Below, piece after piece: positions 22,405 to 63,960 of a DNA stretch of 64,000 nt. This stretch comes from Tubulanus polymorphus. Its lineage: Eukaryota; Animalia; Nemertea. Numbering within the stretch: position 1 is the stretch's first letter; the number at the start of each line of letters is the position of its first letter. The notes under the pieces are model-generated. The model was not told the origin of the DNA and did not search any database. It saw nothing but the letters and a program-made list of their open reading frames with translations. Both the position numbers and the translations under genes were made by a program. The DNA lies in the NCBI RefSeq assembly GCF_964204645.1, contig NC_134032.1, positions 4,798,175 through 4,862,174 of the forward strand. Direction: 5' to 3'.

Positions 22405-22522
22405 TGCTGTGAGAAAGTGAGTAAATAAATTGAACCAGAGAAAAAATTGCATCTAGTAGAACGAACACGCTGACGAAGAATTTATGTGACCTTGACCTTC
22501 AATAGTGAAACTAAGTTGAAAA

Positions 22523-41599: not shown

Positions 41600-42289
41600 G
41601 TCAATGCGGACATATCACTTCGCGATTGATTAACCCTCTCATCCACCAGATAACTAACGAGAAAATGCAATAGAATAACTTTTTGGGCCATTAAATCACA
41701 AAGGTGAGGCAAAAAAGCTCATCCAGAGTTTAGGTTATAGTGCAAAGAATTACGCTCAAGCTCTGCAAGTACACACAATAATTGTGTAACTTCGGGGTTG
41801 CAGGTTCGCTCAGGGGACTCTGTTGCTTTGGTAGATTGTTTATGTATCTGTCACGAATTGTATCACTACCCTTAGTCAGCTTAATTACTGTTATAAATTA
41901 AGGAGTAGTGATCTGTTGGAGAAAGAATCACGCAGAGTTCCAACTGAAAAGTGGGCAAAATGGAATTATTTTGTACGAAATGTATCCAGAATGCATGAAG
42001 CTACGTTGTGATCTTCAGCGATTTCTTAAAGATTGTGTTGATTCTGAGTTTGGGCCATACGCTATTCCGTATAAATCTAGATCTCATACTGTAGATACAT
42101 TTCCAGGTAGAGCCAACTCTGTAAAACACACTACTATGATATTGTCAGGCAAAATCGTTTATGCTATAACTGTTTATAATATATCTATAATATGTTTATC
42201 TATAATCCCAGTCATGTCGTTGCTAAATGTCCATCTGCTATCGTTTGTAAGATAAGAGGCTGCGGTAGAAGACATCACACTAGTTTGTA
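41600..42289 (+). pseudogene. Decayed BEL/Pao gag, left part of the element interrupted by the Polinton
   Basis: KGEAKKLIQSLGYSAKNYAQAL, RLCYNC and HVVAKC...CKIRGCGRRHHTSL, reading in frame into 62957 onward once the Polinton is removed. Confidence 0.7.
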
Positions 42290-42382
42290 AGTAATTGGAA
42301 AAGTAGGCTTTCATACCAGAGGACGAGAGGACGAGACACCACTCATCACCACAAGTAATTTTTTTTCCTAATAAATGGGAGA
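42290..42382 (+). repeat. Polinton left TIR
   Basis: Reverse complement of 62865-62956 with 2 substitutions and 1 indel. Confidence 0.95.
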
Positions 42383-42701
42383 TAGAAAAGCATTCTTAGC
42401 TACAATAAATAACAGAATTAAACCAGCAAAAAAACAATTTGAAATAAAAAAGTTAGTTGATGTTACAAAAGAAATTGAACATAAAATATTGAAATTAGAA
42501 AAGATAAAAACTAAATATGGAGAGAAAGTATCAGCGAATTTAAGCTACTGTAATGTTAGTACATCGCGAGAATTTAAAGTGTTTTTACCTGATCAATGGG
42601 TTTCATTGAGTACAGAGGAATTAAAAGATTTAGAAGGATTTAAAATAATCTATCATGGGAAAAATGAAGACGGTCATCATGATTTAGAAATTGTTGATTA
42701 A
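42375..42701 (+). CDS. Polinton hypothetical protein, 108 aa
   Basis: Intact ORF whose ATG lies in the TAAATG motif at the inner edge of the TIR. Confidence 0.7.
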   Translation: MGDRKAFLATINNRIKPAKKQFEIKKLVDVTKEIEHKILKLEKIKTKYGEKVSANLSYCNVSTSREFKVFLPDQWVSLSTEELKDLEGFKIIYHGKNEDGHHDLEIVD

Positions 42702-43893
42702 ATAAGAAATAAAAATAATGAATATCTAGAATCCAAAATGACCTTAGTCGTTTTATAAACAACTACAATCATACAGTCAAACATCTGTTACATGTTATTA
42801 TAAGAGAGTGCTTCATTTGAATATTGATCAATCAAACAGGTGTTGCACAACGTTGTTGTTATATTGGATAGCTAGCAGCTATATAATAAGCACGCAGTAC
42901 ATACAACACACACCAGTACATACAACACACACAGGACAGGACAGGAGGATAGTCATTCTCTCTCGTGATTAAAAGGAATATTTCAATATTTTTACGGTAA
43001 GTTTTAGCAAAACCACCCGACTTGACTCGCAGAGTTTTTAGGGGATAAGCATCCCGTTATTGAGAGGCGCCACGAGATACCTATCCCCAAGCATTTCTAC
43101 TTACACCCCTGTGACCCACACCACGCCAATTCTCCTTCAATATTTGACAGGGAACACATTATATTAAAGGCGCTTTATGCATTTCCTATCAACCCCTTAC
43201 CCCCGAAAGGAGGATCGAAAGTCGAAACTGAAGGAGAACCACGGAGGGTGGACAAAGGTGCATTTTCGAAATGCCCCTGCAAGCCAAGCCCGGCGGCACT
43301 CCAGTGGTTGAATGAATTGCCTGATATACTTAGCTAAAACACCTGAGTAAATGTTGTTGGTGCTTAAAAAATATATGAAATTTGAAATTATGAATTATTC
43401 CGAATGAAAAGAATATGAGAATGAAAACTGATAAATGAATTATGGATTTTTAACTTAATTATGATATAATTTTTAATCAAATTAGTAATCGATTACCATG
43501 TTAATTGATTAACAAATTCAAATTCAAATATTCATTTTAGCATCACACCCCAACCAGTGCTGCCATCTTTCAATTTAAGATACAACTAATAATAAGAAAC
43601 GACTGTAATACAATATTCAAGTAAAAACAAAATAAATTAATAAAAATAATGAATATCTAGAATCCGAAATGACTTATCTGGACAATTTAATTGCTCCGCA
43701 TAGATAGACAAAAGTAGTGAGATGGTGCCGTACGGAACCCACATGGCGATATTCAATTATTTTTTTTGCTTTTTTTCTAAAATATTAATCCATTTTTTTT
43801 CATTGTCAGTTTTGGAATTTCAGAAGTATTTTCATTTTTGATAGCAGTTGTTTCAGAATTATGAATATCATGAATTTTATCTGATTTCTTATA

Positions 43894-44139
43894 CTAATTA
43901 CACCCAATCAAAATGAATACAATTACAAATCCAACTGTAAAATATAAATGATTATCAAATATTCTATTATCAGCAGGAGTAGAAATAACAATATTTTCAC
44001 CATTTTTATTAACATTTTTACTACTTATTTTTTCTTTTACAGCTTTTTTATATTCTTGTGATTCAATTCCTAATTGCCGAGACCATTCAATTTGTTTCTG
44101 TGATCTCGGTTTTTTCTTCACTTCTTCCACCTTGTTCAT
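43894..44139 (-). CDS. Polinton small protein with a transmembrane segment
   Basis: TAAATG start; hydrophobic C-terminus; may be truncated. Confidence 0.55.
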   Translation of the reverse strand: MNKVEEVKKKPRSQKQIEWSRQLGIESQEYKKAVKEKISSKNVNKNGENIVISTPADNRIFDNHLYFTVGFVIVFILIGCN

Positions 44140-44677
44140 TTATTATAGAAATATTTTTACCTGCAATATTTGAAAATGTTATAACCCCAGTTGATAATAA
44201 TGTCATAAATCCACCTAATTGAAATGATAAATATCCAATCCATTTATTTAATTCAGTCATAACTAAATAATCATTTTTTAAATCGGAATATAATCTATTT
44301 TCATCTTCAATTGGTAGTATATAATTACATAATTTACTATAACCTTTTACTACGTTTTCTGATATCGCGTCATCAATTCTAGCTGTTCTCGCGGCTTCAT
44401 AAATCTTAAATAATCTAATAATTTCATCTGATTTCATTGTATCTAATTCATTATATGTTAAATTTTTACCGACAAAATTTTTACATTTTCCAGATGCTAT
44501 TAATATTTCTAATTGATGTTTACAATAAAGATAATATTCATAATTATTATTTGTTGTAACATTATTTAAAGCACCATCATCTGGAATTAATTTGTTTTCT
44601 GTTATTCCTAAATCATCTAAAGTTTTTTCAATTGGAACATCACCATTTTTAGATTTTATTTTCTTTTCACCTACCAT
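44087..44677 (-). CDS. Polinton hypothetical protein, 196 aa
   Basis: Intact ORF, TAAATG start, hydrophobic stretch near the C-terminus. Confidence 0.7.
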   Translation of the reverse strand: MVGEKKIKSKNGDVPIEKTLDDLGITENKLIPDDGALNNVTTNNNYEYYLYCKHQLEILIASGKCKNFVGKNLTYNELDTMKSDEIIRLFKIYEAARTARIDDAISENVVKGYSKLCNYILPIEDENRLYSDLKNDYLVMTELNKWIGYLSFQLGGFMTLLSTGVITFSNIAGKNISIINEQGGRSEEKTEITETN

Positions 44678-44699
44678 TTATATAACAAAAAAATTAGTT

Positions 44700-44970
44700 G
44701 TGATGTTGCAACTAGAATTTAAATAGAATGTAACTAGAATTCAACTAGATTAACAAGCTAGTTGAAATATTGTTGTTTTTGTTTATTTCTTGTTAAATCT
44801 AGTTGATTTTTGTTCCAACTACCAATAACTAGAATTCAACTAGAATGTAACTAGAATTAAACTAGATTAACAAGCTAGTTAAAATATTGTTAAATCTAGT
44901 TGATTTTTGTTACAACTACCAATAACTAGAATTCAACTAGAATTCAATTAGATTAACAAGCTAGTTGAAT
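44700..44970. repeat. Internal tandem/inverted repeat array (CAACTAGAAT / CTAGTTG)
   Basis: 11-bp units in direct and inverted orientation within a higher-order ~100-bp duplication. Confidence 0.85.
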
Positions 44971-45582
44971 TTAAATAAATTCATATTTAAATGGGTGTTG
45001 TAATCTAAATAGTAATTTTGATCTTTTAATATTTTTCAACTTATCCATATATTCATTACGTAAATCATGTGGAATAATATCATTTTCCTCAAGTGCATTT
45101 TTCATCGATTTTTCTATCTTTATTGAAGAATAAAACTAGAAATCTTATATTCTCCCTAAAGTCTTTAACAATTGAATTATATTTTTGATTTAAAACCCAA
45201 GTTGTTATCCCAAAATGTCTCCCAGAGAAAGCTAAATAACATAACTCACTTTCTCTAACTTTTGAATCATGTAAATTTGCGCAATCATCTATGATAAATA
45301 ATGTATTTGATCCTTTATAAATATCAATTGCTATTTTTATACAATTATCTAAATTTTCTTTTACTGTTTTAAGATCTAATATAATAAATTTATTATTTCT
45401 AGTAATATTTCTATCATAAGTTTGATTAAATTCATATGTTGGACAAAATAATACTATATTATCAAAATAGTTTTTTTATAAACAGTTTCTAATAAATTTA
45501 ATATAAAATAAGTTTTTCCACAATTTGTTACACCAGAAATTAACATATTATGAGGCTCAAATATGAATAATTCCTTATTCAT
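44971..45582 (-). pseudogene. A32/FtsK-like DNA packaging ATPase (frameshifted; not in the ORF track)
   Basis: Manual translation: Walker A ISGVTNCGKT, Walker B LFIIDD, SGRH motif, WVLNQ. Confidence 0.85.
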
Positions 45583-48500
45583 TTATATATTTTTAATTTT
45601 ACTTGATAATATCCATTCATTGAATTTATCTGGCCATCCAACCCATTTTACTAAAGAATATTTTTTTCTTTTAATAGTTTTTGTTTTTAATACTTTTTCA
45701 ATTTTAAATTCTTGTTCTAGATTTTCAGTAGTTAAACTCAATTCTTCTTCATAAAAATACCCATCAACTTCTTCACCATCTAAATCTTCTAATTTATAGA
45801 CATATGGTTTTGTTGTTATTACCTTTTTTATTTTATATATTTTATATATTATTTATATTTTAAAATTTCGATCGTATCCTTTATCGAATATCTTTTTATA
45901 CTTAGATATTCTAACATTTTGGCCAACTTTAAATTTAGGGTCACCAAAATCATCTACAAGAAATGCACCATAAAAATTATTCCAAACAATTTCAGCATTT
46001 TCAGGTTTTCTAGCATCAATAGGTTTCATTCCAATAGAAGAATGATAAGAATTATTATATCCTTCTATCAATTTTGGTAAAACATCAATCCATTTCAAAG
46101 TATTATTTGCTGTAAAATATTTCCACATTATTTGTTCTTAATGTTCTATTAAATCTTTCAACAACTGCCGCTTTTTTATCCGATTTTGTTGAAAAATATT
46201 TAATATTATGATTATCTAAGAGTTCATGAACAAGTGAATTATCAAACTCTTTTCCATCATCAAATTGTATTTTTTCTGGTTTTAGTTTATCATCCGAAAG
46301 AAATTTTTTTAAAACATTTGATGTTTGTACAGCATTTTTTCTATAAAGTGGGAAACTCCATACATAACGACTAAAAATATCAATTATATTCAATAACCAC
46401 CAATAATCATCATTATCTTTCTTAACATTTTTCATATCAATTAAATCTCCTTGCCACTGTTGATCTACATAACTTACCATAGTTCACGAAGGTACAGAGC
46501 CGCAACTTTCAGCGACTTTGACACCAAACACGTGAACTATCTAGGTGCGCGAATGTTGTTATGACGTCATAATACTCTAAATAAAAAACACCGCGCGGTC
46601 TCGCGATACGCGCGTGGAAGGATCTAAAATCTATTCTGCGATGTATTTTAAATAATATTTATAAAAGAATCCATTTAAAGACTATAATTAACATATAAAA
46701 CATAAAATTAATTGAAAGCAACATCGCTGGAAGATTAGTTTTAAAAATTTGATGTCAATCATCAATTACCGCTAGTCAAAATGGCGCCCGTCATGATAAA
46801 CAAGACGGAGAATTTTCTTTAACTGACTGGATCTGGTATAAAATGTAGTATTTCACATCACAAATGGCCCAAGTCCGTTTAAAAGAATAACTGTACCGCA
46901 CTCAAGGCACCAAGGTTGGAATATGGCTATGGATCATGACAAAATAGTGCGCTACGACCGATAAAATATCAGCTGTCGGTACTCGGTCATGCCATGTGGT
47001 ACAGGCCTACTACTACTCTTCTGTCGCATGGAATCGGAACCTGATTCCCGAAGCAGCCAAGGTCCTAACGAGAAGAATAAACGAAACAAATGTAAGTATC
47101 CTGCACTCAATTCTACGGTGTCTAATTATCTTCAAGTGTCTACTCCATCCACACTTTAATGTAGTCTACAAAAACATGGACAAGCAATACTTTAGTAGAT
47201 TAGGTTCTCATCAAACAATCTACTGGGGGTTGAGTGTACGTGTAGGTAGTGTACTCACTGCTACTTATCTTATTTTTAGGAAACATTTTTGACAGACCAC
47301 CTATCTACTAGTGAATGATTTTTCGAGGACCCGAAAAGTAGGCCTAGGCCTCTTAGAGTCGTAAGACGGTAGGCTATTCATGTCATTTATTTACATAACT
47401 ATGAAGTCTTGAAATAAATTTCCACATGCAATTTTTTTATTTCAAAGGCAATGTTTTTTTTTTTCAGAGAGTTCAACCGGTTACAGGAACCCGAACAATG
47501 CTAATTTAGAGGTCAACTTGTGACTAGATAAGCCAGGTTTACAGGATTGGAGATGATAAAGAGTGAGTAGGCCTCACTGACTGAATGGTAAATACATCAT
47601 CTGTAGTCATCGCTGCTGTATTGAATCATTTAACTTTCAGCAATCAATTGATTTTTTTGTTTGCTTTTATTCATCTTTAGTTGATGCAGATATCAAGTAC
47701 AAGGGCATGAAGTTGAATCTTTAAACTGGGGATTGTCAAGATTTTACTTGTTTCCATCTTTTCACTTTGATGTTTGAATAAATCTAAACATATAAAAGAG
47801 CTTTTTCTTATGCGTATTCTTGAAGTCGTGAATTCCTATTCATTCCTACTAACAGAAGAAAATAAGAGAAGCTTCGTCTACACTTGCATCTTATACCGAG
47901 GTTATGCGTCTACACTAAGCTCGAAACACGGGTTGAATGCAAAAAGCCAGGTTTTTGAAAAAGGAGTTATATAACCTATTGAGAATTGAACCTATGTTCA
48001 CGAAAAACTCTACAGATGTGGATTCAGTTACTGGAGCTAAATTAAGTGTAGATGCAGCCCTGCAAACGCTGGTTTTTTTATGAACCCGCATACTTTGAAA
48101 CCCGGGTTCAACGAGCTGTGGACGTGGTAATATATATCGCAGTCAGAAAAAGAAGCAAATTGAAAGTACATCAATCTTTTATTTCCAACCTAAAACAATG
48201 AGACAGAAGGTTTGAATGCAACAAGCCATTTGAGCAATTGCGGTTACTAATTTGTAAAATGTATTGATATGATATGGAAGGCCAACTGCTGAATTCCATG
48301 GGTACCATCAGAACCAAATGCACGCTACTTGCCATCTACCTGAAATAAACAATTGTCAATATTATGTTATAAACAAATAAATATGAAAAAAATGCAAATT
48401 TCTGCTTGATACAACTTACATTTGAATGGGAAAAATCGGTTATAAAATATCTGCTATGTCTGACAAATAACTGACGAATCCTATAAAACAAAAAATATAT

Positions 48501-50006
48501 TATCTTTAAAATAAAATTAACAATTCAATGATTTTTGGCAATCTTCCAATACAATATACATAGGTCCCTAGTAGGCCTACGCTAACACTAACTGAGCCAG
48601 ACAACCTGATATCCATTCAAACAAAACTGAATTCGACATTAGATGTGAGATGCGTGAAAATGAGCCATAGGCTGGTTTTCCACGAGAAACAGATCAATCA
48701 AATTTATTTCCCTTTAGCCGTTTCCACAACAAGGGAGCGGCACTGTTGGACAGGACAGACACACATTTTCGAGTCTGTATTAATCAATTGTTTACTGTGA
48801 CTGCGCAGTAATTAGTCAGAATTTTCAGGGAAATCCCCTACAAAAATGGCCCCACCACCCGAAGACCTGCACACAAATTTCTGTGTCAGAGCCAAAATTG
48901 AGGTAACGCCTGCGCTTTTACGCCTTTCTTGTGGAAAATCCTAGTTTAGTCATATTACGCAACGAAATCAATATTTCCTTATGCCAAATGATTATTCTCA
49001 TAACAGTCTTTCATTTCAGGATTCAATAAGTCTCAGTATGTGGCACTAGTCCAATTACAATAATTTTCGAATTTGGTCCGCAGTTTACGATTAGGCCTAA
49101 CTTGATGACGCAAATTCTAAGTCAACTCGTAATAGGGAGTACACATTCTATATTTCAAAATTGACAGGAGAACAAGATCTAATTACGTATGTTTTCAGAT
49201 TTCGAAAGAACCCAATTATATTCCAGTAAAAGTCATCAAAATTAATAAGGTAAAAACGCTAGCTCATAAAATTAGTTTTGAAGTAGTACGAGAAACTGGG
49301 AATATCTCACTTATTTCCAATGCCATATAGACATATAAGGTATCATTCGATTCGTTTCTAGATGGGTTTTAATACTATTGGGTATTTGGATGACTGAACT
49401 GTCTATTCTACCTTAAATTCTTCCAAAACTTTGAGATTTCGCAGGCCCAAAACCGGCAAAATGACAAAATTACTTCCTGGTTTTTAGCGCCGCCCTGAGA
49501 AATTAATATGGCGAAAGTTGAGAAAACTGGAACATAGCTAAACGCTAAAACACGTATAATTTCGTTTTAGATATGTTTCGGTTCGAATCCCAAATACTTA
49601 ATACCTTAAAACGTGACATAAGTCCGGGTGCCGTTCCGTATTCATTCAACACGCGCGCTCAACCGCGAAGCTATTTTTAGCGCAACAATCAATTTAACCA
49701 ATAGAGACGCGCTACGTCATAACGTTCGACATGGTCGCATTTGCCTTTACTCGTACTGTCGTGAGTTTTACGAGTTTTATATTTTCTAACAATTTTTTTA
49801 TGTGTTGTATATGTTGGTTGTTCTAGCATAAATTCATTTATATCTTTATATTTAACTAAATTGTGTGGGATTATCTTATCTAATTTATCTTGTTTTACTT
49901 TACTCCATATATTTTTGGTAGAAGAATAAGCAACCGAACTCTCAGGGTTGTAATATAAATTTCTTAAATATTGTTCTTTAGTATTAGGAGTTTTTTTACC
50001 TCCCAT
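45583..50006 (-). pseudogene. Retroviral-like (rve) integrase with a C-terminal chromodomain, split by the 46485-49763 insertion
   Basis: LYYNP N-terminus (49764-50006) joins in frame as RKT|MVSYVDQQWQGDLIDM. Also IDIFSRY, QFDDGKEF, VVERFNRTL and chromo LVKWVGWPDKFNEW. Confidence 0.92.
46485..49763. mobile_element. Non-autonomous Chapaev-like DNA transposon
   Basis: CACGA...TCGTG termini with imperfect TIR, 4-bp TSD AGTT (46481-46484; 49764-49767); removal restores the integrase frame. Confidence 0.85.
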
Positions 50007-50036
50007 TTATATATCCTGAATTTTAACTTTATATTT

Positions 50037-51285
50037 CTAATATTGAATACTATCTAATTGTGAATTTACAATATTTAATTGCGCATCAGATATAATATAA
50101 ATATGCGTTTTGAAATTTAAGCTTCCTTCTTTCTTTTTCATTAATAATTGTATTCCATCTTTAGTGTTCTGTAGTTTTTTTTCCAGAACCATGTAATGAA
50201 TTATCCTCTGTTGTTCTAAAATCTAACCATAATGCGTATCTATTGCCGGTATAATAATCAATTTGATTAATATTACAATTTTCAAATGATTTTACTTTTT
50301 CATTCATAACATGTTTTCTAATTTCTGGCCACTGATCAATCATTCTCATTCCTTGACAAAATATTTTATTTGCTATTCCTTCGATAGTTATTTCTACTTT
50401 TGTTATTTCAGGATTATAATAATTATCTACCTTTATTGCGCCATTAGAATATGTTACAATGGTAAAAAATATTAATATGCCTTTAATAGATCTTCTTGGG
50501 AAGTTAATATTCTCATTAATTATTTCATCATTTGCATTAATAGTTACAGTTTTAAATTTATCAATATAATCATATAATAATGAAAATCCTTGATTGTATT
50601 GAGTTTGAATTGTGCTAGCAATATTTTCATTAGTTACTGTGTTATATTCTAAACATATATTCGATAATTTATAACCCATATCTTTAACAACGCTAGATGA
50701 TAAAATTTCATTTACAGGAGCAAATGTTATCTCAAATATAATATTTTCTTGAATTACATATTTATACGAAGGTGCATTATTATTTATCAATTCATAGTCT
50801 AATGGAATTTTATATTTGCTTCCATAAATCTTTTTAATCAAATTATCTGTGGCACGAGTTACTATTGTGTCATTAGCTCCCGATCTTAATTTATTATGGT
50901 TTTTCGATTGAATGCCCTGAAATATCATATTATTTCTATTTTCTTTAGTTAACCATACATCTTTATAATGCATAAATAAATTATAATCATCTAATGAGAA
51001 AACTGTTTCTGGACCAATCTTTATTGTTAACTTTTTAATCAAATATCTCCCAACATTATCGACAACATAATTATTATCATGACCTGTTACTTTTATATCG
51101 GCTGATAAATAAATACTATTTGGAACATAAAAAGTGTTTTGTGTTAATCTAGGAATTCAAACATATAAAGTTTCATCCGAATTAATATTTGAAGGATTAT
51201 GAGTAATTATATGATGTGATCTTTCTGCTTTAATAGCATTAGATATTCTAGAAATCTTAGAAGGACTTATGTAACTCCCACTCAT
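50037..51285 (-). pseudogene. Major capsid protein (double jelly-roll, putative)
   Basis: ~415 codons from the TAAATG start at 51285 with one stop and one frameshift; beta-rich pattern; size and position fit a Polinton MCP. Confidence 0.7.
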
Positions 51286-51305
51286 TTATTTAACAAAAAA
51301 ATTAA

Positions 51306-52750
51306 TTATTTATTTTTTATTATTTTTTCCTGATATCTTTTTGATATCATATTCACTAACCCAAAAATAATAGCACTTACAACTGTAATTAAAAATAAGA
51401 TAATATGTTCAGCAGCAAAATTAAGAATATTCCCAGCAGATTTCAATATAAAACCAACAATTGATGCAATAATTCCTGGTAAAGCTGCAGCAGATTTTTT
51501 AGATAGTTCCCATAAATATTTTGCTAATTTCTTTAAACCATCTTTAACTTTATATTGTATTGAATTATTACCTGGGGGTTTATCCGGTTTATTGGGAGTA
51601 GGAGTAGATTTTAAAGAATTTGATATTGCTAAACCAATTGTTGTAAATAACATAGTAACAGCTGTTAGAATTGAAAGAATTGTTATTCCTTCTAATTTAA
51701 ATAATAATTTTATTCTATCTTTCAAGGATAAGTCAGAATTTGGTTTTATTCACAAATCTTTAAAAATAACTTTTAATCTATTAATATTATAATCATATGA
51801 TTTTAATAATAATTTAATTTCTTCTTTTTTAATTCTATGTTATATTCTAAATCATCAATTTCTTTTTCTAAATATGCATTTCTTTTTTTAAATTCAATTT
51901 CTTCAATAACTTTATTATCTCTATCTAATTTTAATTGTTCTATTTCTTTAATTTTATCAGTTCTGTCTTTTTCCAAAGTTCTAATTTTAAAATCTCTTAT
52001 ACTTTTATCATGCGCAATTTTATCAGATGCATTTCTTATGCTAATAATCTCTCTAATTGCTTTATCAAAAAATATATCTAAATCCTCTAGTTGTTGATCT
52101 GTTGCATCAATTAATCCATTCGGTAAAAGTTTTTCAATTGGAACTTTATTTGATTTAAGTTTACTAGTTTTGGAAGTTATATTTTGTTCAGAAGTTGTTT
52201 CTGTTTCTGATTTCTTTTTGATTATTTCAAATAATTCATTAATTCTTTGTTTATATACGTCTATATTATCATCTATTTCTTTTTGTGTAACATCAGTTAT
52301 TTCATTACTATTACTTAATATTTTAATTCTATCTGGTTTTAATTTTTCTAAAGTTGATTCTGATAATATTCTATTTTTATAAGTGATATCAATATAATTA
52401 TCACCTTTCAAACGATAATAACATTTACCATTATCTAAAAATTTTAATTGATCTGCTAAAAGTCCAACGTCTTCATCATTTATGTTAAGTTTAGATTTTT
52501 CAATTAAATCTTCTAATTTAGGTATTTTGTTTAAATTATCTAAATCTTGTTTTACTAAATCTGGGTCTAAATTTTCAGGATTTAATTGTGATTCTGCATT
52601 TTTAATATAATCAGGCATATTTAAATTATTATTATATTCTGGCTCATTACCGTCATTAAAACTTGTTTCATCAAAATCAGGTGGTTGTTCATCACTTATA
52701 CCAGGTTCATCAAAAGGATCCATTCCAATATCTTCACCTTCTACATCCAT
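51306..52750 (-). pseudogene. Acidic/coiled-coil protein with C-terminal membrane helices
   Basis: ORFs 51803..52750 and 51306..51725 are colinear and only the first has a TAAATG start. Confidence 0.6.
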
Positions 52751-52978
52751 TTATATAATAAAAAATTAAAATTTAAAATATAATATTCCTCCTATAACAA
52801 TTCCTATACAAGTTAAAGCTAATTTAGTATTTTCATGGGATTTATTATCATAATAAGTTTTAATTATATCATGCTGAATATTATCAGTTTAAATATTTTC
52901 TGTAGTATTGTAATCTTTTATTTTGGAATCATTATTTAATTTAATATTCTTAGTTTTAGTTTCTGTTGATTGAATGTG

Positions 52979-54174
52979 TTATTTATTTTTTTCGCCTTCC
53001 ATTAATTTTGGAGCAGTAATAATCTTTTTATTTATATCATTTAACCCAAATGAATTATTTATTGTTGCAGTTTTAATTAGATTATTATAACCAATTATAT
53101 TTCCCATCTTTAATACTAAATCATTAGAAATAATTAATAGATTAGGGCCTATACAATAATTTAATCTTATATGTGATTTATCTAAATAATTTTGATATCT
53201 TACAATGTTTTCTGGAATCGATCTATTTTTATCATTATGAATAGAATCTTCAAATAATACTTTGAATTGTTTCTGTGTATCAAATGATGTATTTAAATTT
53301 CCAATTACTGGGGATCTTGTTTCAACTTGCGCACCTAAAATACATATCAAATGAGTTCTAATAGATTGATTTATTCTTTGTATACCTGATTTTGTAAAAC
53401 CTTCATTATTTTCTAAAATGAAATAAACCCAACCATTATTGTTTTCTTGTTTTAAATCATCATAACATTTCGGTAATTTATTGAAATTTAATGTTTCTAA
53501 ATCCTTTGTTTCTATTTTACCATAACCTAATTCATTATTATAGATATTATAAAAACTATGAGATGGTATGGGAAGTGCACAATATTCTGCAATCTTTTTA
53601 GGGCAAGGAAGTGATCTTATTGTTCCAATTTTCGTTCTAAAATCAGAATTATTTATATCTATATTAAATTCCTTACAAATTTTATAAACCTTTGATAAAT
53701 TAATATTATTATCTAATTCTTTAAAATATCTAGATCCTGGTAAAGCACACTCTAATTCATTTAATATTATTCTTATTTGAAAGTATGTATGAAATCTAAA
53801 TAAACTTTGAATTAATTTATATTTAGAATTATTCAAATGATCATTCCAACTTATACCACATCCTGGGGTTGCACAATAAACAGCAAAATTTAATTGGTTC
53901 TGCCAATACTTCATATTAGATTTTAATAACCATTGTTTTTCATCTTTCAATTTTTTAAAATTAATTAAATATACATGAAATATATTTTCCATCTTTGCAT
54001 TAAAATTATAAGTTTCAGTAACATAAATTTCTAAATTAGTTAATGAATCTATAACTTCATCATTTCTATATGTAATATCTTTATTAAAATCTATTGCTGG
54101 AATATTATATTTAATTGATTTATTATATTGGAAAGCTTTTGGAAAACTATCTACCAAGCTTTTGGAAACCCCAT
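52979..54174 (-). CDS. Polinton hypothetical protein (~400 aa)
   Basis: Long ORF; likely true start at TAAATG 54174, disturbed by a short duplication; C-terminus probably continues to ~52770 via frameshifts. Confidence 0.65.
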
Positions 54175-54190
54175 TTATATAATTAAAAAA

Positions 54191-54616
54191 TTAATAATTT
54201 ATTAATTCTTTTAATAATTTATCTTGTTCTTCAACTGTTATATGACCATTTAAACTTATGATATAATCTAGTATGTTCTTTAATTTATTAATTTCTTTTA
54301 TATTAGTTTTAATTTTTTCTTTATTACTTTTTATATCTAATTTTGAACTTATACCAGTTAAAACACTTGAACTTAATCCTAATACACCAATTGATATAGC
54401 TAAAGGTGTTAATGGACTGAATATTGCTAGAAATGTTATTACAGAACTAATTGTAACCGAACCACTTATAATCAAATAATATATAATTTTAGATTTTAAA
54501 TATTTTTTCTTTTTAACTTTTAAGTCACTTTCAAATTCTAATATTTGTTTTTCTCAATATATTTTTAATTTAGTTTTATTTATATCATGAGGAATAATAT
54601 CAATATTATCTTCCAT
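54191..54616 (-). pseudogene. Small two-TM / coiled-coil protein
   Basis: TAAATG start at 54616 is in frame with ORF 54191..54475; one internal stop. Confidence 0.55.
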
Positions 54617-54635
54617 TTATTTAGAAAAAAAATTA

Positions 54636-55058
54636 CTAATTAGTAAACTTATAAGCAACAAATATAACAATAACAGTTCCGCCTAAAATCCAAATTATTT
54701 CATATTTCTGTTGTTCTTTACTTGGGGTATAATAATCTGATAATTTAGGTTTGTATAGATGTAATTTTTCTTTAATTGTTACTGCGTTATATAAACTCAT
54801 TGCATCATCAACTGATTGAAAATCTCTATGTGAAATCTTCTGATCATATAATTCTTTGCTAATATAATCCATATAGTTTCGCCTCTTTTCTCTATATTCT
54901 TCTGCTGCTTTATTGTATTTCTCTAATGCTAAGTTATTTCTTCTTTGTTCTCCTAATGAACTATTTTTATCAATATGTTTAAATAAATATCCACCACCAG
55001 TAAATCCTAAAGCGTTAACAATTGCCCATCCTATAATATTTATATTTGCAGAAGCCAT
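54636..55058 (-). CDS. Polinton hypothetical protein, 140 aa, Gly-rich hydrophobic N-terminus and C-terminal TM
   Basis: Intact ORF with TAAATG start. Confidence 0.7.
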   Translation of the reverse strand: MASANINIIGWAIVNALGFTGGGYLFKHIDKNSSLGEQRRNNLALEKYNKAAEEYREKRRNYMDYISKELYDQKISHRDFQSVDDAMSLYNAVTIKEKLHLYKPKLSDYYTPSKEQQKYEIIWILGGTVIVIFVAYKFTN

Positions 55059-55082
55059 TTATTTAGTAAAATAATTACGCAT

Positions 55083-55303
55083 TTATATGGGAGGAATATA
55101 TTTTTGTTTTTCTAAATAATCAAAAGTTAAATTAGATAAAGTAACTGCTAACGTTAATTTTAAGATATCATTTATATCAAATCTATCAACATTAACACTT
55201 CCCATTTTAATACATTTTTTAATACCATTGAATAACATACAGTTCCAACTGATAGTAATGCGCCATTATATAATCCAGTTATTATCCACTTATTATCACT
55301 CAT
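55083..55303 (-). pseudogene. Small hydrophobic protein (~73 aa, one frameshift)
   Basis: TAAATG start at 55303; manual translation MSDNKWIITGLYNGALL...YLEKQKYIPPI. Confidence 0.5.
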
Positions 55304-55443
55304 TTATTAATCGAAAAAATTACTATCTTTAAAATATTTAGTTAACTTATTTACGATTAATTCAACATTTATTTCATTACTAGTTTCATTTGTATATATT
55401 TCAATTATTATTTTTTTAATATCATCGATGATAAAATCTTCAT

Positions 55444-55665
55444 TTAAACTAATTCATAAAATATTAAAGATTCTCTAAGTAAATTAGTAATCTTTTCTAC
55501 ATTTAAAGTTTCTTTATCTATTGTTGTTTTATACTCAAATGTTGTTTCATTAGAAAATGATATATTTTTGATATGTGTAATTACATCATTAATGTTAAAT
55601 TTCATTTCTTTCACACGTTTAAAATCAAATCCAAAACATATGCTCGGCCCAACAGTTATATTCAT
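55444..55665 (-). CDS. Polinton hypothetical protein
   Basis: TAAATG start; probably extended to ~55320 originally. Confidence 0.5.
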   Translation of the reverse strand: MNITVGPSICFGFDFKRVKEMKFNINDVITHIKNISFSNETTFEYKTTIDKETLNVEKITNLLRESLIFYELV

Positions 55666-55681
55666 TTATATAATGAAAAAA

Positions 55682-56444
55682 TTACTCTCTACATCTTATA
55701 ACTAATTCATAAATTACAGGAAAGTTATTCAAATCAATTAAATATCCATTATGATTTCTTATTTCTAATTTAAAATTATTAAAATGTGGAATACAAGGTT
55801 TAAAATCACATTCAGCTAAATTATAATTTATTTGCGTTCCAAATTGTTTAACATTTTTTAATGGTAAAATATTTAATATACTAGAATTACAAATTGTATC
55901 TTTAGTTGCTTCAAATGCTTTTGTAGGACCAATTAAATTGCAATAAATATAAAAATGTGTAAAAGGTATTATATTTGATATACATACCATATGTGTTTCT
56001 AGTCATAATACGCGGTTTAATTCCTAACATTTTAGCTATTGGTTTGTGTACCATAAATGCATGTTTGCGTTCATCATCTAACTTTATTTTAATTTTATTA
56101 GAACTATCACTTTTTATAAATCTAATTGAAAATTTATCTTCACTTTCAAGTTTTACTTGTGCTCTTCTATTAATTTCTTGGGCTAATGTTTCTAAATTAT
56201 ATAACCCTGGTTTTAAAAATAGATGAAACCATTTTCCTTTATCTTCATTAAAAATCAAAAAGACTCTATGTTCAAGAGTTTTATCCGATATATTGTAAAA
56301 TGAGTTACATAAACTTATATTTACTAATTTTAAATCTACACAATTCTTAAATTCTCTATCTAATTGTACTAGTAAATTATGTGATTTATAATTTGTAAGT
56401 TTTCTAGAATCAACAAATATTCTGTATTCTTTTAATTCTACCAT
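55682..56444 (-). pseudogene. Minor capsid (penton-like, single jelly-roll) protein
   Basis: Two overlapping ORFs; SFYNI, PGLYN, FYIYCNLI and NGYLIDLNNFPVIYEL motifs typical of Polinton minor capsids. Confidence 0.7.
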
Positions 56445-56512
56445 ATTTTATAACATAAAAAAATTACCGCTCATCACTAAAAATTAATTTTAATAAAATT
56501 TTTCCTAAATAA

Positions 56513-57740
56513 ATTGATGAGAAGATAGCATGCGAAATTTGTGGTGAACTTCTAAGAAAAAGTAATATGGCTCGACATATGAAAAAACATGATGAAAATT
56601 ATAAACCCCCTAAACTAAACTGCCCAAAATGTAATAAATTATTCACACGAAATTATGTTAAAAAACATTCAGAGAAGTGTAGAATTAATGGCACAACGGC
56701 TCATGTTGATAGTTATGAAAGTAATAGTAATTCTGCTGAAGTTGAACCTGAAGTTATTTGGAAAAGACCTTTCTTATTCTATGATAAGGATAATATAAAA
56801 GATCATTTCTGTGAGCCTCGTCGAATGAAATATAGCCCTGAAAATACAGAAGATTGGGAAAATCATCAATTTCGTAAAGCACATATAGATAAAATTTCTA
56901 ATAAATTTGAAACTGAATTCAATGAAAGAAAAGATAATTTATTAGAAAAAAATAAAATATGAGAAAACGTTACCAGATAATAAAGAAACAGTTGAAAAGT
57001 TAGAAAAACAATATAATGAATTAACAAGAAAAACATATTATTGTAAATATTGTAAATTGATTATTAGAACAAGTAATTCAAATCTACATAATAGAACAAT
57101 AAAACATAAAGAAAACGTAAGAAAATACCAAGAGCTTAATGAAGATCTATTACCAATAAATTATAAACAAAAATGCCCACAATGTAGTTATGCGACCTTA
57201 AGGCAAGAAGGTACTGTGTTATTTTGTAATGAATGTGGATGGCAAAAGAATTTATTGGGTGAAGAAAAAACTAGAAATTTTCACATAGATCCAAAATTAA
57301 ATTATCTTGATGAAATTTTTAAAATATTTTCTATAGAAGATCATACACCAGAATATATGCAATGGCTTGAAAAAATGAAAACTATAGAAAATAAAAATGG
57401 TGAAATAACAAAAAAAGATATTATAAAAACAATTATTCCGTCAACATTTAACACAAAACAAAAGAAAATGTATTTATATTTATTATTTAACGATTATTAT
57501 GAAAAACCTAAATTAACAGAAGAAGATATGAAAAATATAAAAAAAATATTCAAACAAATATTAATGTATTATTTGGAAAATAGAATAACAGATTCAATAA
57601 ATTATGAATTCTTTTTAAATAAGATTGTAAATTATTTAAACCTAGATATTATAATTCCATTTGATGAATTAACAAACAAAAAGAAACAAAGAGAGCGAGA
57701 TGATATGTGGAACAAGATAGAACAAGGAAGAAGAACCTAA
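56513..57740 (+). pseudogene. Zinc-finger protein fused to a poxvirus VLTF3 (A2L)-like late transcription factor domain
   Basis: Three C2H2/C2HC fingers, then CPQC-x11-CNECG, NYLDEIF, INYEFFLNKIV and KQRERDDMWNKI. Start apparently mutated (TAAATT at 56510-56515); frameshifts at ~56950-57010. Confidence 0.6.
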
Positions 57741-57803
57741 ACAATTAAATGAAAATGAAGAAGCCAATAGTGATTTCGAGTATGATAATATTGATTTTAT
57801 GTT

Positions 57804-60800
57804 TTAATAACCATAAGGTAATGTTTTTATACCATCATCTAAAATATGCCTTTTATCATCAAATGGATTTAAACTAGTTTTTTCAACTTCATTAATGTAC
57901 ATCTCGTGATCTTCTGATCTTAAACAATTCATTTTGTGTTTCATTACAATTGATTTATATAAACATTTTATATAATCTAGAAATTCTATATGTTTATCAA
58001 CCACATGTTTTGTTATTCCTTTTAACTTTTTAGCTTCATGATCTTTTGTTCTATAACTATACATTTTACTTCTTATCCCAACAAATTCAATCATTTCATC
58101 ACCCCCTAATTCATCTTTAAACTTACCAGGAATCTTTTTATTATCATTGCTAAATAGTTCATGATCTTTGGGATAATTGCTAAAATCAAAATGATGTTTT
58201 AATGTTTTTAAGTCTTTTGTTATATCATTTGTCTTGATTTTTAGTATGTAGGCGTCCGTATTTTTGGCTATTAATGGAAATCCACAGTTAAATGTACCAT
58301 CTTCAGTTGATAAATCATAAACATAATCTGTTGGGTTATATATTTCAAATAAATCCTTAACTTCTTCTGTTAACTCATTTTCTACATGGCTTAAATTAAA
58401 GCAATTTGGTTTAGATTTAATCAATCCAATATTCATATTAAAACCTAATTAATTACATAATATATTCAATCCTGATATAGCAACTTTTCCTTTTTGAGCT
58501 AAAGATATCGTTTTGCGGTTTTTGAAACTTTTTGAACAATCTGCAGCATAAAACCCAATGAAGAACCATTTTCTTAAATTATTTTTTGCATTTAATACAT
58601 AATCTGGTACTATCTTTTCTTTAGTTGAAGTATTACTTTTCACTATTGCATGAATATAGAATTCATCATTATATTTTATAGCAAAATCTTTAGGATTATT
58701 TACAAGTATTCTATAAACTGCTGTTGATTTCATATGATCCACGATGTTTTATGTGAATAAACTTCTTCACAGAATTTCTTTATTCTTTCTAATAATTTTA
58801 AGTTTTGATTGCATAAATACCAGCAATATTGAGTGCGATTAACATAATTATACACACCTGCTGAACCATCTCCCATGAAAAATCCTTTGATAAGATATTC
58901 TTTTTCTTCTAATGTTTCGGGTTCTATGTTATAAATATTATCAATTATTTCATCAAATGACATATGATTCATTCTTTGGAAAAATCTTTTATGTAATAAT
59001 TCATCTCCAATTTTTATATCAGTTGGTTTTATTTCATTACCATTTCGTTTAATTAAACTATGATCTTCTGTAACATCTACAAACCCTAATTTAGTTCTAA
59101 CTCTATAAATTTTCTTATTTGTTTTATGCCTAATAATATTCTTTAATTTTTTCCATCCATTTCTTGTCCAAATATCCATTAAACCATTTATTTGTATTAA
59201 TTCTTTTTCACCATATGAAATATAACATTCATTTTGTTTTGGAATTATTTCTGAAATTTTCTTATCAATATTTTATTATTCCATTTTAATAATATTGGGG
59301 TGTCAGCTGTTACAGAATCAAAATATAATATTTCAATATGCTTTTCCCCAAAAAGTGGTTGTAAAACATTATAATAAAAATCATACATTAATAATTTTGA
59401 TACTCCTAAAACAGTTGAACCAATGAATATAGGTTTATTAAATTTCATTGACGTTCTTTTTAATTTAACTGCTGTTAAATAATCTTCAAATCTTTTATTT
59501 CCTAAATGTCTAGGACTTGATTGTAGATGTCTTAATCTTTCAGAATTATTTACTAATTCAATATCATTTCTATTTCTAATATTTTCGCATGTTTTACCAT
59601 AAAAACTATTATTCATTAATTTGAAGAAATCTTTTTCAAAATCTGTTTTTGATATGGTTCTCTGTTGAGTATTGAAATCTATATATTTTTCTAACCACTT
59701 CGATTGATTAAATTCAATATATCTATGTACTTTCTTTAATTTCATTCTTTGTTTTAGATAAAATTTTAACATTCTATAATGAACAATATAATTGTATTTA
59801 TTATTTTGAGTAAGTATTAATTTTTCTGTAAAAACATGATCTTTCGGTTTTATTTTCTTCTGGTATTCACTTAAATAACTATCATCTACGGTTAAATGTT
59901 CTGGGCAATAAGGTAAGTTTCTTGTTTTAAACTTTATATTTTCAGGATATTCTAAATCAACTACAAAGAAATAACCAATTGGTGCTTCATCTTCTAAACT
60001 CATAATTGCGCTTTCCCAATTAGTTTTATCATCATTTTCAACTTCTGTTAATATAAAATTTTTATATGGTTGAGATTGCATCATTGCCCAACCATATAAA
60101 TTATTGGCGTCAATATATAATAATTTATATTCATCATTTGCTTTAAAATACCTATCTCCCATAACACCACTAATTCCACCTCTAATTGATTTTTTTTCAA
60201 ATAATAAAACCATATCTGGTTTTTTTAATAAATCTTATTCTACATTTGTATATTTTTAACCACATTGCCAGGTTAAACCAGGACTTGAATAACAATAACA
60301 AGGATCAAAATTAAAATGATTCAAATTAACTTCTCTAAATTTTTCAAATATGTCAGCCAATATCATAACATCGGATTTTAGATATAAATCAACTAATTCA
60401 CCATGATTTTTTATCTCAAAATGGTTCCAAATATTTAATGTTCTATTAAACACTTCATCTTTCACATACTCCTCTTTTAATTGATCATAAAATTGATCTT
60501 TTAATAATTCTGTTACATTAAAATCATTGTGTGTTTTATAAAATGAATAAGGAATTGCGCCTTTATATCTCAATAATTTAAAATCTTCGTCATTTGGATA
60601 ATAATATCGAGTTATTATAAAATCATTATCAACTAAACTTTTTTTGATAAATTATCTAATGAACTTGCTAGAAATCTATAAGAATCTAAAAATCTAATGC
60701 AACCAAATTGAAATGAAATATAATTTTCAGATGTTTTAGCTAATAGTTTAAAATCATATTCTCTTACATTTACACCATTCATAGCATTATATTCTTCTAT

Positions 60801-62872
60801 TTCTTGATTAATTGTACCCAATTTGTTTGGTAATTGTTTTATAAATAGATGGGTATCATAGCCTGATAAATTATGAAATAATATTGGTACGAAATTAACT
60901 TTCTTAGCTTGAATATTGCAATCTTCATCAGCAGCTCCACGATATTTTGAATTTAAATGATCGTGATCTCTAACTTTTTTATCAAATGAATAAAAACGTT
61001 TTTCACAATAACAACAATGAGTTGCATAATTAAAATCAATTTCATCTTCTTTTGTCATAACTATTTTTTTATTTTTGTTTAATAATTTTGCAAAATCACT
61101 TTCTAATTCAATCATTTTGTCACAAAAATCATTAACTACATCTTCACCTCTAAAAGAAATATATTGACTTTCATATAATTCGGGATAATTTGATTTTATA
61201 TAAATTCCATAAGGAGCAGCTCTTTGATGAACTTTTTAAATTGTATTTATAATTGGTGGGTCTTGTATTGTGTCTTCATTTAATTCATTTCCTTTATCCA
61301 TTGATTTTAATAATTGCTTTTTGTTATATATTTCTTTTCTATCTTGATCAGTTAATTCTTTATTCAACGATTCAAAATCCCCATAAATTACAAATGGAAC
61401 AATATTTTTAAATTCATGATTAGTAAATTTCAACTTACAATCTTTTTTTGTTGGCATTATTAATTTACAAAAATCTTTATTATGACATAATTCTTTATGT
61501 TTTAATAATGTATTCTCAGTCATAAATTTAGATAAACATTTTCTACATAGATAAATTTTATTATGGTGATCACTTACTGTTCTAAAGAATAAATCAATTT
61601 GTTTTAACCACATATAATGTTCATTTTCATCTTTTTTGTTATATAACAAATCTATAGCATTTTCATCATCATAATATTCTGTTAAATATAAAGCTTCCAA
61701 TGTATAATCTTTAATATTTTCACCTTTTGTCTTTGGTAATTGCATTAATTCGAATACATTTATTTTTAAATTATTAACTTTTTCTATTTTAGGAATCATT
61801 TTTTATAGTTACTGGATATTGATCAATTTTATATAATGTTTCATATTTCCGGTAATTTGTTATTCTAAAACTATGTGTCATATCTTCTGTTGGGTGTAAA
61901 CAACTAATAATTGACCATAGAAAACATTTATTATCTTCATTTTGAACATTTATTACTGCTTTTGTTGTAAATGGTAATTTAATATAAGATGATGCTTTAA
62001 TATCCTTTTCTGTTGTAAAGTTTGAATCATTTTTAAACATTTTATTACTTTTTGATGTTTTATTCCTTTTTGTATTGTAAACATTTAAATCTAAATATAT
62101 AATTTCATTCAATGTTAAGCCAGAACCCTCAAAATATCTTTCTTCAATACGACGTTTAAATACATTAAATATTTTTTCTAACTTCTTTTTTATTTGTGTT
62201 TTTGAAATTATTTCTTCAGAGAGTGTTTGAATATTATAATCCATTTTTTCTTCTGACTTTATAAAACTTACTTTCCCAGAGATACTAATTTTTGGATATT
62301 CAACATCTGTTATCAAATCTAGTATTTTTTCTATTATTTCATTAAATTTACAATAATCTTCTATTGTTGTACCTTTAAAAAATTTAAATATAATAGCTGC
62401 AGGACCAATTTTACTATGTAATGTTTCTAAAATTTCAATTGTATCTTTTATTTCTAATGAATCAATATAATTTCTAACATTTTCCATGTAAGGTTTATTT
62501 GAAATGGATTTAGTTTTTGAACTTGGTTTTTTTACTTTTTGAGATTTATCATCAAAATATTCTGATCCTAAAACATTTTTATTTAAATTTTTATAATGTT
62601 TTTGTGATTCGAGATGTCTATTATAATTCCTTTTTACTATAAATTCATTACAAACTTCACATTTTATTTCATCCACATTCATATTTTCTAATCTTTCTTT
62701 TCTTTCATTGGAATTATCTGGAGTTTCAAAATCTATTAGAATTTTTTATATGATTTGCAGTTTTTTCATGTCGTGTTTTATTAGATGTATCGATGTATTT
62801 TTTACAATATGTGCAATAATATTGATTTTTATTAACATTATTGTTTTCTGTCTGGTGTTCATTCTCTCCCAT
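57804..62872 (-). pseudogene. polB: Protein-primed family B DNA polymerase with N-terminal zinc fingers, an endonuclease VII-like insert and an intein
   Basis: ExoI YGDFES, ExoII FHNLSGYD, ExoIII YLKSDV, SIRGG, motif A YIDANNLYG, motif B KLMNNSFYGK, motif C YFD|TDA, KMY, KLKGI; multiple frameshifts. Confidence 0.93.
58260..59316 (-). mobile_element. Intein with a LAGLIDADG homing endonuclease in PolB motif C
   Basis: Block A SVTADTPI, block B VDVTEDHSL, block C LIKGFFMGDGS, block E FFIGFYAADCS, block F YVYDLST, block G IAKN followed by Thr+1; two frameshifts and one stop. Confidence 0.9.
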
Positions 62873-62956
62873 TTATTAGGAAAAAAATTACTTGTGGTGA
62901 TTAGTGGTGTCTCGTCCTCTCGTCCTCTCGTATGAAAGCCTACTTTTCCAATTACT
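62865..62956 (-). repeat. Polinton right TIR
   Basis: Reverse complement of 42290-42382. Confidence 0.95.
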
Positions 62957-63960
62957 TTTGTATAAATCAGATTTTAGGCAAAATATTGTCAAATCAAATT
63001 CAATGGAAGAAGTAGGTATTTTGAGCAACCACACGCGTAATTCATCAAATATCTATTTTCAGGTGATACCTGTTGCAGTGATCGGAAAGAATGGTCGCAC
63101 CGTCGCCACTCATGCGTTGCTGGATTCAGCTCTTGACATTAGCCTCATCAACGATGAATTAGCTCAAGAATTGGGTTTAAAGGGTAAGAAGCAAAGCCTT
63201 ACCATTAATACCCTGTCAACGAGCGTTACTGAAAACTCTCAATGTGTGTCGTTTAAACTGAGGGCTTTGAATGCTCCATGTACTAAATCTGATATACTAG
63301 TAGTGGGATCGGCGTATACAAAATCTGGTTCATTTCGATGCCAAACTCAGAATAAGGCTCTTTGTCAATCACAATTTAAACATTTGGAAGATTTGCCAAT
63401 TGCAGACGTCAATCGAAGTGAAGTAAAGATTTTAATTGGCGCTAATAATCCCCGTGCACATGTTCAGCTTGAAATTCGGGAAGGGCTCTCCGATCAACAA
63501 CCAGTGGGGATTCGAACCCCCCTAGGCTGGTGTATTTTGGGTTCATCATCGCTTTTGCTTACTGATTCATGTCAGACCATCGTAAACAATACTGACTCTG
63601 AAGAGTCATCTCTTGATAATTTAGTTGAACGTTTCTGAGTCATTTGGTGTGGCTTTTAAGGAGTCTAAAGGGTCTATCGATGATCAAAGGTGTGAAAAAA
63701 TTCTAAAAGAATCTACAAAACTCGTTGAGGGTCATTATGAAATAGGCATGTTATGGAAATCAGATGATTCTGTTTTTCCTGATGGTAGGAATTTGGCGTT
63801 AAGTCGATATAGAAATTAAGAGCGTAGGTTGAAAGGTTCCGAGGGTATGCTTCTAAGTTAACGGAGAGTGTGTTAGCGTTTTCAGGGTCACGGATTTGGT
63901 ATATTCCTCATCATTGTGTGCTGAACCTGAACAAACCAGGGAAAGTTCGAGTGGTTTTTG

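Follow-up and report, generated by a model that had tools for sequence, protein, structure and literature searches.

The Polinton and its surroundings

The window, that is the whole 64,000-nucleotide stretch of DNA analysed here, harbours an integrated Polinton/Maverick element (Table 1). Its terminal inverted repeats (TIRs; 42289-42365 and 62881-62957) measure 77 nt and are 97% identical, and identical copies of a 6-bp target-site duplication bound it at 42284-42289 and 62957-62962; both features define Polintons/Mavericks. The element carries the Polinton gene set of protein-primed DNA polymerase B (pPolB), rve integrase, A32 ATPase and capsid protein, with most of the genes broken. Pfam recovers rve (E 4e-11), Pox_A32 (E 4e-7) and DNA_pol_B_2 (E 2e-5) and, weakly, Capsid_N (E 0.006), and tblastn with related loci also backs this gene content. 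No adenovirus-type maturation protease was found in the Polinton with one protease-like ORF of locus L124 and the frames of 24 related loci, a search that covered short or decayed frames in part. Neither an RNA polymerase gene nor an A1 or G8 gene was recognised in the element, and Pfam and solved-structure look-ups, which were not exhaustive, recognised no VLTF2 or TBP-like gene; for four unknown Polinton ORFs they returned no solved relatives.

Higher-GC DNA of about 3 kb (46600-49600), probably a later insertion, splits the N-terminal integrase frame (49689-50006) from the integrase core (46103-46483), and degenerate tandem repeats of 86-117 nt lie between the ATPase gene and a 196-aa ORF (44710-44980). 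An aspartyl-protease frame (62901-63638) adjoins the right end of the Polinton and is similar to that of a decayed Pao/BEL retrotransposon in the flank (22520-27733). Because the flank holds this retrotransposon and a rhodopsin-family GPCR frame, the host is likely an animal. Two long overlapping frames on the forward strand (19088-21657; 388 and 530 aa) are without a Pfam match.

Table 1. Features of the Polinton and of its VLTF3-like gene (window coordinates)
Feature	Position	Strand	Basis
Integrated Polinton/Maverick	42290..62956	.	20.7 kb with later inserts; TIRs, target-site duplication, genes
Promoter-like motif of the VLTF3-like gene (T-tract around -10, then TAAAT)	56494..56514	+	Leave-one-out score above all 556 other TAAAT sites
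Twelve further motif copies	42356..62891	.	First T of TAAAT at 42372+, 44680-, 45585-, 50009-, 51288-, 52753-, 54177-, 54619-, 55061-, 55306-, 55668-, 62875-
First frame of the broken gene (fingers 1-2, degenerate finger 3)	56513..56962	+	Matches P0003 residues 10-65 and 186-263
Zinc finger 1 (C2H2)	56531..56590	+	Pfam zf-C2H2, E 0.0013, under curated cut-off; kept in P0003 and P0004
Zinc finger 2 (C2HC-like)	56621..56680	+	Sequence; kept in P0003
Zinc finger 3 (second cysteine missing in window copy)	56810..56884	+	Alignment to P0003, where the cysteine is present
Second frame (finger 4, zinc ribbon, VLTF3 helical domain)	56946..57740	+	47% identity to P0003 over 238 aa
Zinc finger 4 (U1/matrin type)	57042..57107	+	Pfam zf-U1, E 1.1e-6, above cut-off
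A2L-type C4 zinc ribbon, CPQC-x13-CNECG	57174..57239	+	Four cysteines invariant with avipox VLTF-3; aligned in both hhalign runs
VLTF3 helical core	57270..57719	+	Pfam Pox_VLTF3, 28.3 bits; BFVD top match cowpox VLTF3
Short acidic frame ending against the pPolB stop	57721..57807	+	In L001 both stops also abut (2135-2140)
pPolB, several broken frames, tail-to-tail with the VLTF3-like gene	57804..62872	-	tblastn of intact L001 pPolB, 48-83% identity, five pieces
Intein in the YxD/TD motif of pPolB, broken in window copy	58260..59316	-	Pfam Intein_splicing, E 2.6e-4; PI-PkoII, E 9e-7; junctions

A broken VLTF3-like gene with zinc fingers

The preliminary description had read the gene opposite pPolB as a fusion in which three zinc fingers precede a CxxC-x11-CxxCG ribbon and a domain like the viral late transcription factor VLTF3. 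The span is in fact made up of two overlapping frames of 149 and 264 aa (tblastn frames +2 and +3), and the fusion itself stands by way of intact relatives. Three fingers are recognisable as described, and a fourth, degenerate one is present as well. The four-cysteine ribbon is real; its spacer is x13, not x11. The sequence motifs that had been quoted all lie in the second frame, NYLDEIF at 57300-57320, INYEFFLNKIVNYL at 57597-57638 and QRERDDMWNKI at 57687-57719.

A phmmer search over 1.84 billion representative proteins returned four proteins. Among them P0003 (697 aa, E 6e-42) and P0004 (446 aa, E 4e-20) each have one ORF in which fingers at the N-terminus precede the VLTF3 domain, and it is these that show the fusion of fingers and VLTF3, which does not hold literally for the window copy. 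Both window frames match the one ORF of P0003, the first with E 2e-18 and 4e-15 and the second with E 2e-64, and the P0004 finger that corresponds to zinc finger 3 is of the zf-C2H2_jaz type (Pfam, E 7e-6). The contig that encodes P0003 (L001) has an intact pPolB tail-to-tail with the VLTF3-like gene, the same arrangement as in the window. Another protein, P0005, has the VLTF3-like domain without fingers; this finger-less family member of 281 aa (P0005/P0009) sits on contigs of 6-13 kb. Word-indexed protein searches gave no match for the window domain among 103 candidates, nothing but P0004 itself for the P0004 domain, and nothing but P0005 and poxvirus proteins for alignment A5. A locus search found no VLTF3-like gene in viral contigs or prokaryote genomes and at least one, L001, in metagenomes, of which 25 of 64 parts were scanned.

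At the promoter-like site of the window gene (56510-56517) there is no in-frame ATG. The short acidic frame is, judged by the abutting stops in L001, likely the original C-terminal tail of the protein, which would make its separation a third break in the gene. The first two breaks were compared with contigs of three public runs from one organism, one study and two samples: the contigs differ from the window at these sites in about 98-100% of depth, and the breaks are therefore peculiar to the window copy or its assembly. Summed contig depth over 55900-58400 amounts to tens of thousands in run X1 and to hundreds to thousands in X2 and X3, from 1740, 602 and 523 contigs, respectively, with many variant copies; this depth is not a copy number.

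Membership of the VLTF3/A2 family

The proposed homology with the nucleocytovirus protein VLTF3/A2L is borne out by Pfam, hhalign, profile HMMs with shuffled controls, phmmer, the predicted fold and ESM Atlas. The Pfam search suggested earlier for this purpose succeeds with the trimmed 194-aa domain (57156-57737), which scores 28.3 bits against Pox_VLTF3 (cut-off 25, E 1.7e-6). The whole 264-aa frame does not match Pox_VLTF3 at E<0.1, nor do five of the six members of alignment A4 (five relatives), and the Pfam A2L_zn_ribbon model does not match the window domain. A C4 ribbon lies N-terminal to the helical domain, as is typical of the family, and its four cysteines align with poxvirus and Megaviricetes ribbons. 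The fourth phmmer match is an avipoxvirus VLTF-3 (E 9e-4, residues 6-186, 28% identity), relative to which the window domain keeps the ribbon cysteines and the INY and W motifs.

Profile comparisons connect the Polinton family to both virus groups. A four-sequence Polinton profile aligns by hhalign with avipox A2 (96.8%, E 2e-10, 186 columns, score 68.7) and with 74 Megaviricetes VLTF3 domains (94.9%, E 4e-8, 177 columns, score 57.2), whereas 40 column-shuffled controls for each reach at most 0.8% and 4.8%, with scores of 17.6 and 24.4. The Megaviricetes set is narrow; it was gathered with a single motif, and 74 of 119 ORFs were kept. A 17-sequence chordopoxvirus HMM gives the domain 34.5 bits compared with 10.9 for the best of 300 shuffles, and a domain-only Megaviricetes HMM gives 17.2 bits compared with 6.1 for shuffles; the whole-protein Megaviricetes HMM gives 11.3 bits, which does not exceed the best of 300 shuffles. 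By both methods poxvirus A2 thus gives the domain a higher score than Megaviricetes VLTF3 does. In ESM Atlas, 27 of 30 matches are Pox_VLTF3 (top 0.96), with a recognition score under the tool's own confidence level. The window gene belongs to the VLTF3/A2 family, as the broken copy of a member that is carried by Polintons and fused to zinc fingers.

Predicted fold and divergence

A structure model built from six non-pox rows reached pLDDT 82 and pTM 0.70; single-sequence prediction was unusable (pLDDT 49). With this model the structural check proposed earlier also came out positively: the first-ranked of six BFVD matches at E<=0.001 is cowpox VLTF3 (E 4e-6, TM 0.63), and the other five are two late factors of entomopoxviruses, a VLTF3-like protein of Megaviridae, one exonuclease and an entry without a name, so that four of the six bear the name of a late transcription factor. 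The domain is accordingly similar to VLTF3 over its full length in profile as well as in fold. Foldseek with the domain model returned nothing from the PDB at E<=0.001, and a sequence look-up found no solved VLTF3 structure. VIA aligns TFIIB chains over 84-93 residues (Z 5.5-5.7, rmsd 3.3-3.9) and, as its best cyclin, a chain with Z 6.4, values below the tool's threshold for helical proteins. Judged by entry titles and chain identities, cyclin folds make up 17 of the first 19 VIA rows (Z 5.4-6.4). A TFIIB-like fold of the domain is thereby weakly suggested by the model.

In a 30-row tree, the phylogeny that had been called for, Polinton, poxvirus and Megaviricetes sequences form three long branches, and the Polinton rows fall outside the 10 chordopox A2 rows (99/98); the tree is without entomopox, asfarvirus and egovirus rows and names no donor. 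Between the window and L001, dN is 0.38 for the VLTF3-like domain and 0.06 for pPolB, so that the domain has evolved about six times faster, in contrast to the conserved chordopox A2, and its function may have shifted. Synonymous sites in DNA this rich in AT have probably reached saturation, which makes dN/dS unusable for inferring selection.

A promoter-like motif at the gene starts

The VLTF3-like gene had been linked to TAAATG motifs, a claim that survives in modified form: the hexamer alone is not enriched (44 compared with 33-39 expected), and a bipartite form of it is. This motif, a T-tract centred at -10 followed by TAAAT(G), marks 13 gene starts in the Polinton. The pattern AATTTTT-N5-10-WTAAATG, which was defined after seeing the data, occurs nine times in the Polinton where 0.2-0.3 are expected, a number attained in none of 600 simulations, and is missing from the 43 kb of flank. 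Two of the 13 starts are the two TIR copies, and five stand in front of broken frames, with the motif itself contributing to their assignment. T at -10, A at -14 and TAAAT are found at all 13, and TAAAT runs into the ATG at 12; at least five T residues in -13 to -8 occur at 10 of the 13 compared with one of 32 other TAAATG sites (Fisher p 9e-7). Scored with a leave-one-out matrix, 11 of 12 sites exceed all 556 other TAAAT sites, the exception being the integrase site. A start at 56444 has the T-tract and a variant initiator and is excluded from the 13. In the intact relative L001 the VLTF3-like ORF begins at the same motif as the window gene. The motif and the first codons lie inside both TIRs (42356-42377 and 62870-62891), where one predicted promoter would drive pPolB and the other a 108-aa ORF.

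A single promoter class precedes the genes for polymerase, integrase, ATPase, capsid and VLTF3-like factor, and no separate early class was seen in the element. Transcripts from poxvirus late promoters start within TAAAT and carry a non-templated 5′ A leader. In vaccinia late promoters TAAAT and a following G overlap the start codon, and a conserved T stands ten bases upstream among other T residues (PMC11980589), and the Polinton starts share this layout, with TAAAT over the ATG and T at -10.

An explanation outside transcription would have the domain serve RNA binding, genome packaging or replication together with pPolB, and the motif be an AT-rich context for translation start. Fingers of the U1/matrin and jaz types often bind RNA according to their Pfam descriptions, the tail-to-tail linkage with pPolB is fixed, and TAAATG alone is not enriched, all of which would fit. 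Fixed spacing and the invariant T at -10 and A at -14 nevertheless suit a promoter better than a start-codon context, and the entire VLTF3 domain has been retained, so we regard this explanation as very improbable. The T-tract was also considered as a splice or trans-splice acceptor, and this was rejected because no AG follows it.

Co-occurrence of factor and motif, which had been put forward as a check, was followed in 25 partial pPolB loci (L125 was dropped, being on the same contig as L122). A VLTF3 gene is present in one of them, L001, with the motif at both of its two genes. An IMG/VR Polinton fragment (L123, 1-9034) begins all seven of its ORFs at TAAATG, in most cases with no T-tract, and gives no VLTF3 match in 9 kb; the remaining 23 loci have TAAATG at 13 of 211 starts. 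A VLTF3 match in L134 was rejected as weak (E 0.002, 38 residues). The counts are compatible with a linkage of factor and motif, in one lineage and across partial loci.

The main rival to a dependence on another virus is an autonomous switch, in which the factor acts as a TFIIB-like initiation factor with the host's nuclear RNA polymerase II and the shared motif is a private promoter that needs no helper. Integration takes place in the nucleus, the window and L001 both have the motif as well as the factor, and the combination of a ribbon with a weakly cyclin/TFIIB-like predicted core would suit such a role, although the VIA Z values fall under the threshold for helical proteins. An ordinary 5′ leader is expected from the promoter spacing of RNA polymerase II. 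TAAAT over the ATG is the poxvirus layout and leaves no such leader; moreover, the factor gene and pPolB stand behind the same motif, so that no distinct early class is available to bootstrap the system, and the missing VLTF2 and TBP-like genes (within the non-exhaustive look-ups) speak against it too. The rival has precedents among viruses without RNA polymerase, in which VLTF3 presumably works with host polymerase II. Ariadnaviruses lack RNA polymerase yet keep VLTF3, along with VLTF2 (10.64898/2026.08.29.747986), and mriyaviruses of 35-45 kb carry both factors (PMC11253617); for this reason the presence of a VLTF3 domain alone does not mean that a viral polymerase is at work. These two groups resemble the Polinton in being small or reduced and in having kept VLTF3; they differ from it in also keeping VLTF2 and in being classed as Nucleocytoviricota, whereas the window element is a pPolB/rve Polinton. 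On balance we consider the autonomous switch rather unlikely.

The pPolB neighbour and its intein

The intact pPolB of L001 starts with a zf-U1-like finger (E 0.001). Its core is 88% identical to that of the window pPolB, and it lacks the intein, which we take to carry homing-endonuclease-like motifs. The closest relatives of the intein are found in environmental giant-virus contigs (up to 50% identity over about 140 aa), and YGD stands just before the intein start in 19 of 37 giant-virus-contig loci. This sequence kinship points to a past exchange of DNA with nucleocytoviruses, without naming a pox-like partner. Homing-endonuclease inserts in polinton pPolBs have been mentioned as likely intein invasions (PMC11071308).

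A proposed helper-dependent Polinton

The reading that we prefer, at a probability of about 0.5, is that the intact factor recruits a pox-type helper virus's machinery for late transcription to the Polinton's own poxvirus-late-like promoters. The element would lie silent until the helper's post-replicative machinery reads the T-tract/TAAAT promoters; this silence is proposed because no early promoter class and no RNA polymerase gene are seen. As the factor gene itself stands behind the motif, its product would be made from the same promoter class and would amplify rather than trigger expression. The ribbon and helical core would replace the helper's A2 in the late initiation complex, while the added fingers, of the U1/matrin type also found at the start of the neighbouring pPolB, might hold the factor on the nucleic acid of the element. 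Late transcription would thereby be biased toward the element at the helper's cost.

The sequence support for a helper virus is circumstantial and consists of the late-promoter layout of the gene starts and of the leaning of the domain towards poxvirus A2. Precedents also count in its favour: the promoters of mavirus mimic the late motif of CroV, and integrated mavirus has been proposed to be read upon CroV co-infection (10.1101/068312); polinton-like viruses (PLVs) occur in entomopoxvirus occlusion bodies and have been proposed to be hyperparasites of poxviruses (PMC11296320). The kinship of the intein with giant-virus contigs and the zf-U1-like finger on the L001 pPolB are counted on the same side. 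The intein relatives weigh on the other side as well, being environmental giant-virus contigs that name no pox-like source. Also counted against a helper are the tree without a resolved donor, the fast evolution of the domain relative to pPolB, the fragment L123 with TAAATG and no VLTF3 match, the finger-less P0005 domain, and the motif, which is data-defined and helped to assign five of the 13 starts. Timing is a further point, in that vaccinia A2L is an intermediate gene (PMC11980589) and the Polinton gene lies behind a late-like motif.

The same helper could be met in the opposite way, with its factors reading the Polinton promoters and the Polinton protein acting as a dominant-negative mimic of A2 that curbs the helper and shields the host cell lineage. 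In vaccinia, A2 works in a complex with A1, G8 and H5 (PMC2674943, PMC8400408), which would be open to poisoning by a mimic, and both the fast divergence of the domain and the late-like timing of its gene, as read from the motif, would accord with a decoy. A plain inhibitor would, however, silence the element too, all of whose genes would need the same late complex, and the ribbon cysteines and the INY and W motifs have been kept; we therefore think a decoy quite unlikely.

Returning to the helper-dependent reading, a wider proposal is that this animal Polinton lineage consists of endogenous virophages of a pox-like virus still to be discovered, wired throughout with pox late promoters and equipped with their own zinc-finger-addressed A2 that commandeers the helper's RNA polymerase. 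We offer it tentatively and would place it somewhat short of even odds.

Relation to known systems

With poxvirus A2L/VLTF-3 (PF04947 and PF08792; NCVOG0262) the Polinton protein shares a C4 ribbon followed by a helical core over 186 columns, the same predicted fold and the pairing with TAAAT(G) promoters that have T at -10. Sequence identity is about 25-28%, and the Polinton protein differs in having four added N-terminal fingers and in evolving fast; its gene resides in a 20-kb integrating element in which A1, G8 and RNA polymerase were not recognised.

VLTF3 as an accessory gene of Polinton-type elements is not new. It has been reported in coral polintoviruses (PMC11131425, citing Krupovic and Koonin 2016), a polintovirus gene has been labelled VLTF (PMC8502044), and about 30% of clusters VC123/VC126 carry it (10.64898/2026.06.19.733378). 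The passages of these reports that deal with VLTF3 give no domain architecture, promoter analysis or mechanism, and the likeness to them is one of description only; the parts of PMC8715426 and PMC3671162 that were consulted hold nothing further on a Polinton VLTF3. Within the literature outside subscription papers and supplements, we came across neither the fusion with zinc fingers nor a pox-late promoter signature spanning the genome of an integrated Polinton. Genes of this class were known before, and the novelty lies in the finger-fused architecture together with the pox-late-like promoter wiring.

Mavirus shares with the window element an integrated pPolB-rve design with promoters that copy the late motif of a large virus (10.1101/068312). 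It is proposed to rely on the late factor of CroV, whereas the Polinton encodes its own homolog, has a pox-type motif and a likely animal host, and dependence on a larger virus is what we infer here. The PLVs of entomopoxviruses were found in occlusion bodies, whereas the window Polinton is integrated; VLTF, TAAAT, motif and transcription do not occur in the main text of PMC11296320. Gene transfer from egoviruses to polintons has been described for KilA (10.1101/2024.03.23.586382).

How animal Polintons are switched on, and whether they depend on larger viruses, receives a testable answer from this element in the form of a single promoter class of vaccinia late layout in front of almost all its genes and of a homolog of a factor that vaccinia requires at such promoters. 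If the helper-dependent reading is true, it predicts a pox-like virus in the host and a virophage-type defence in an animal. Should the lineage indeed consist of endogenous virophages, it would represent a virophage that encodes its own specificity factor for the polymerase of its helper, and a natural probe of the function of VLTF3, one of the most conserved nucleocytovirus genes.

VLTF3, a marker of Nucleocytoviricota, was called undetectable outside the phylum in 2024 (PMC11253617), and Polinton copies of it bear on marker-based surveys of Nucleocytoviricota. The Polinton family also links poxvirus A2 to Megaviricetes VLTF3, two groups with hardly any direct match to one another in the same comparison (hhalign 10%, with avipox rows only).
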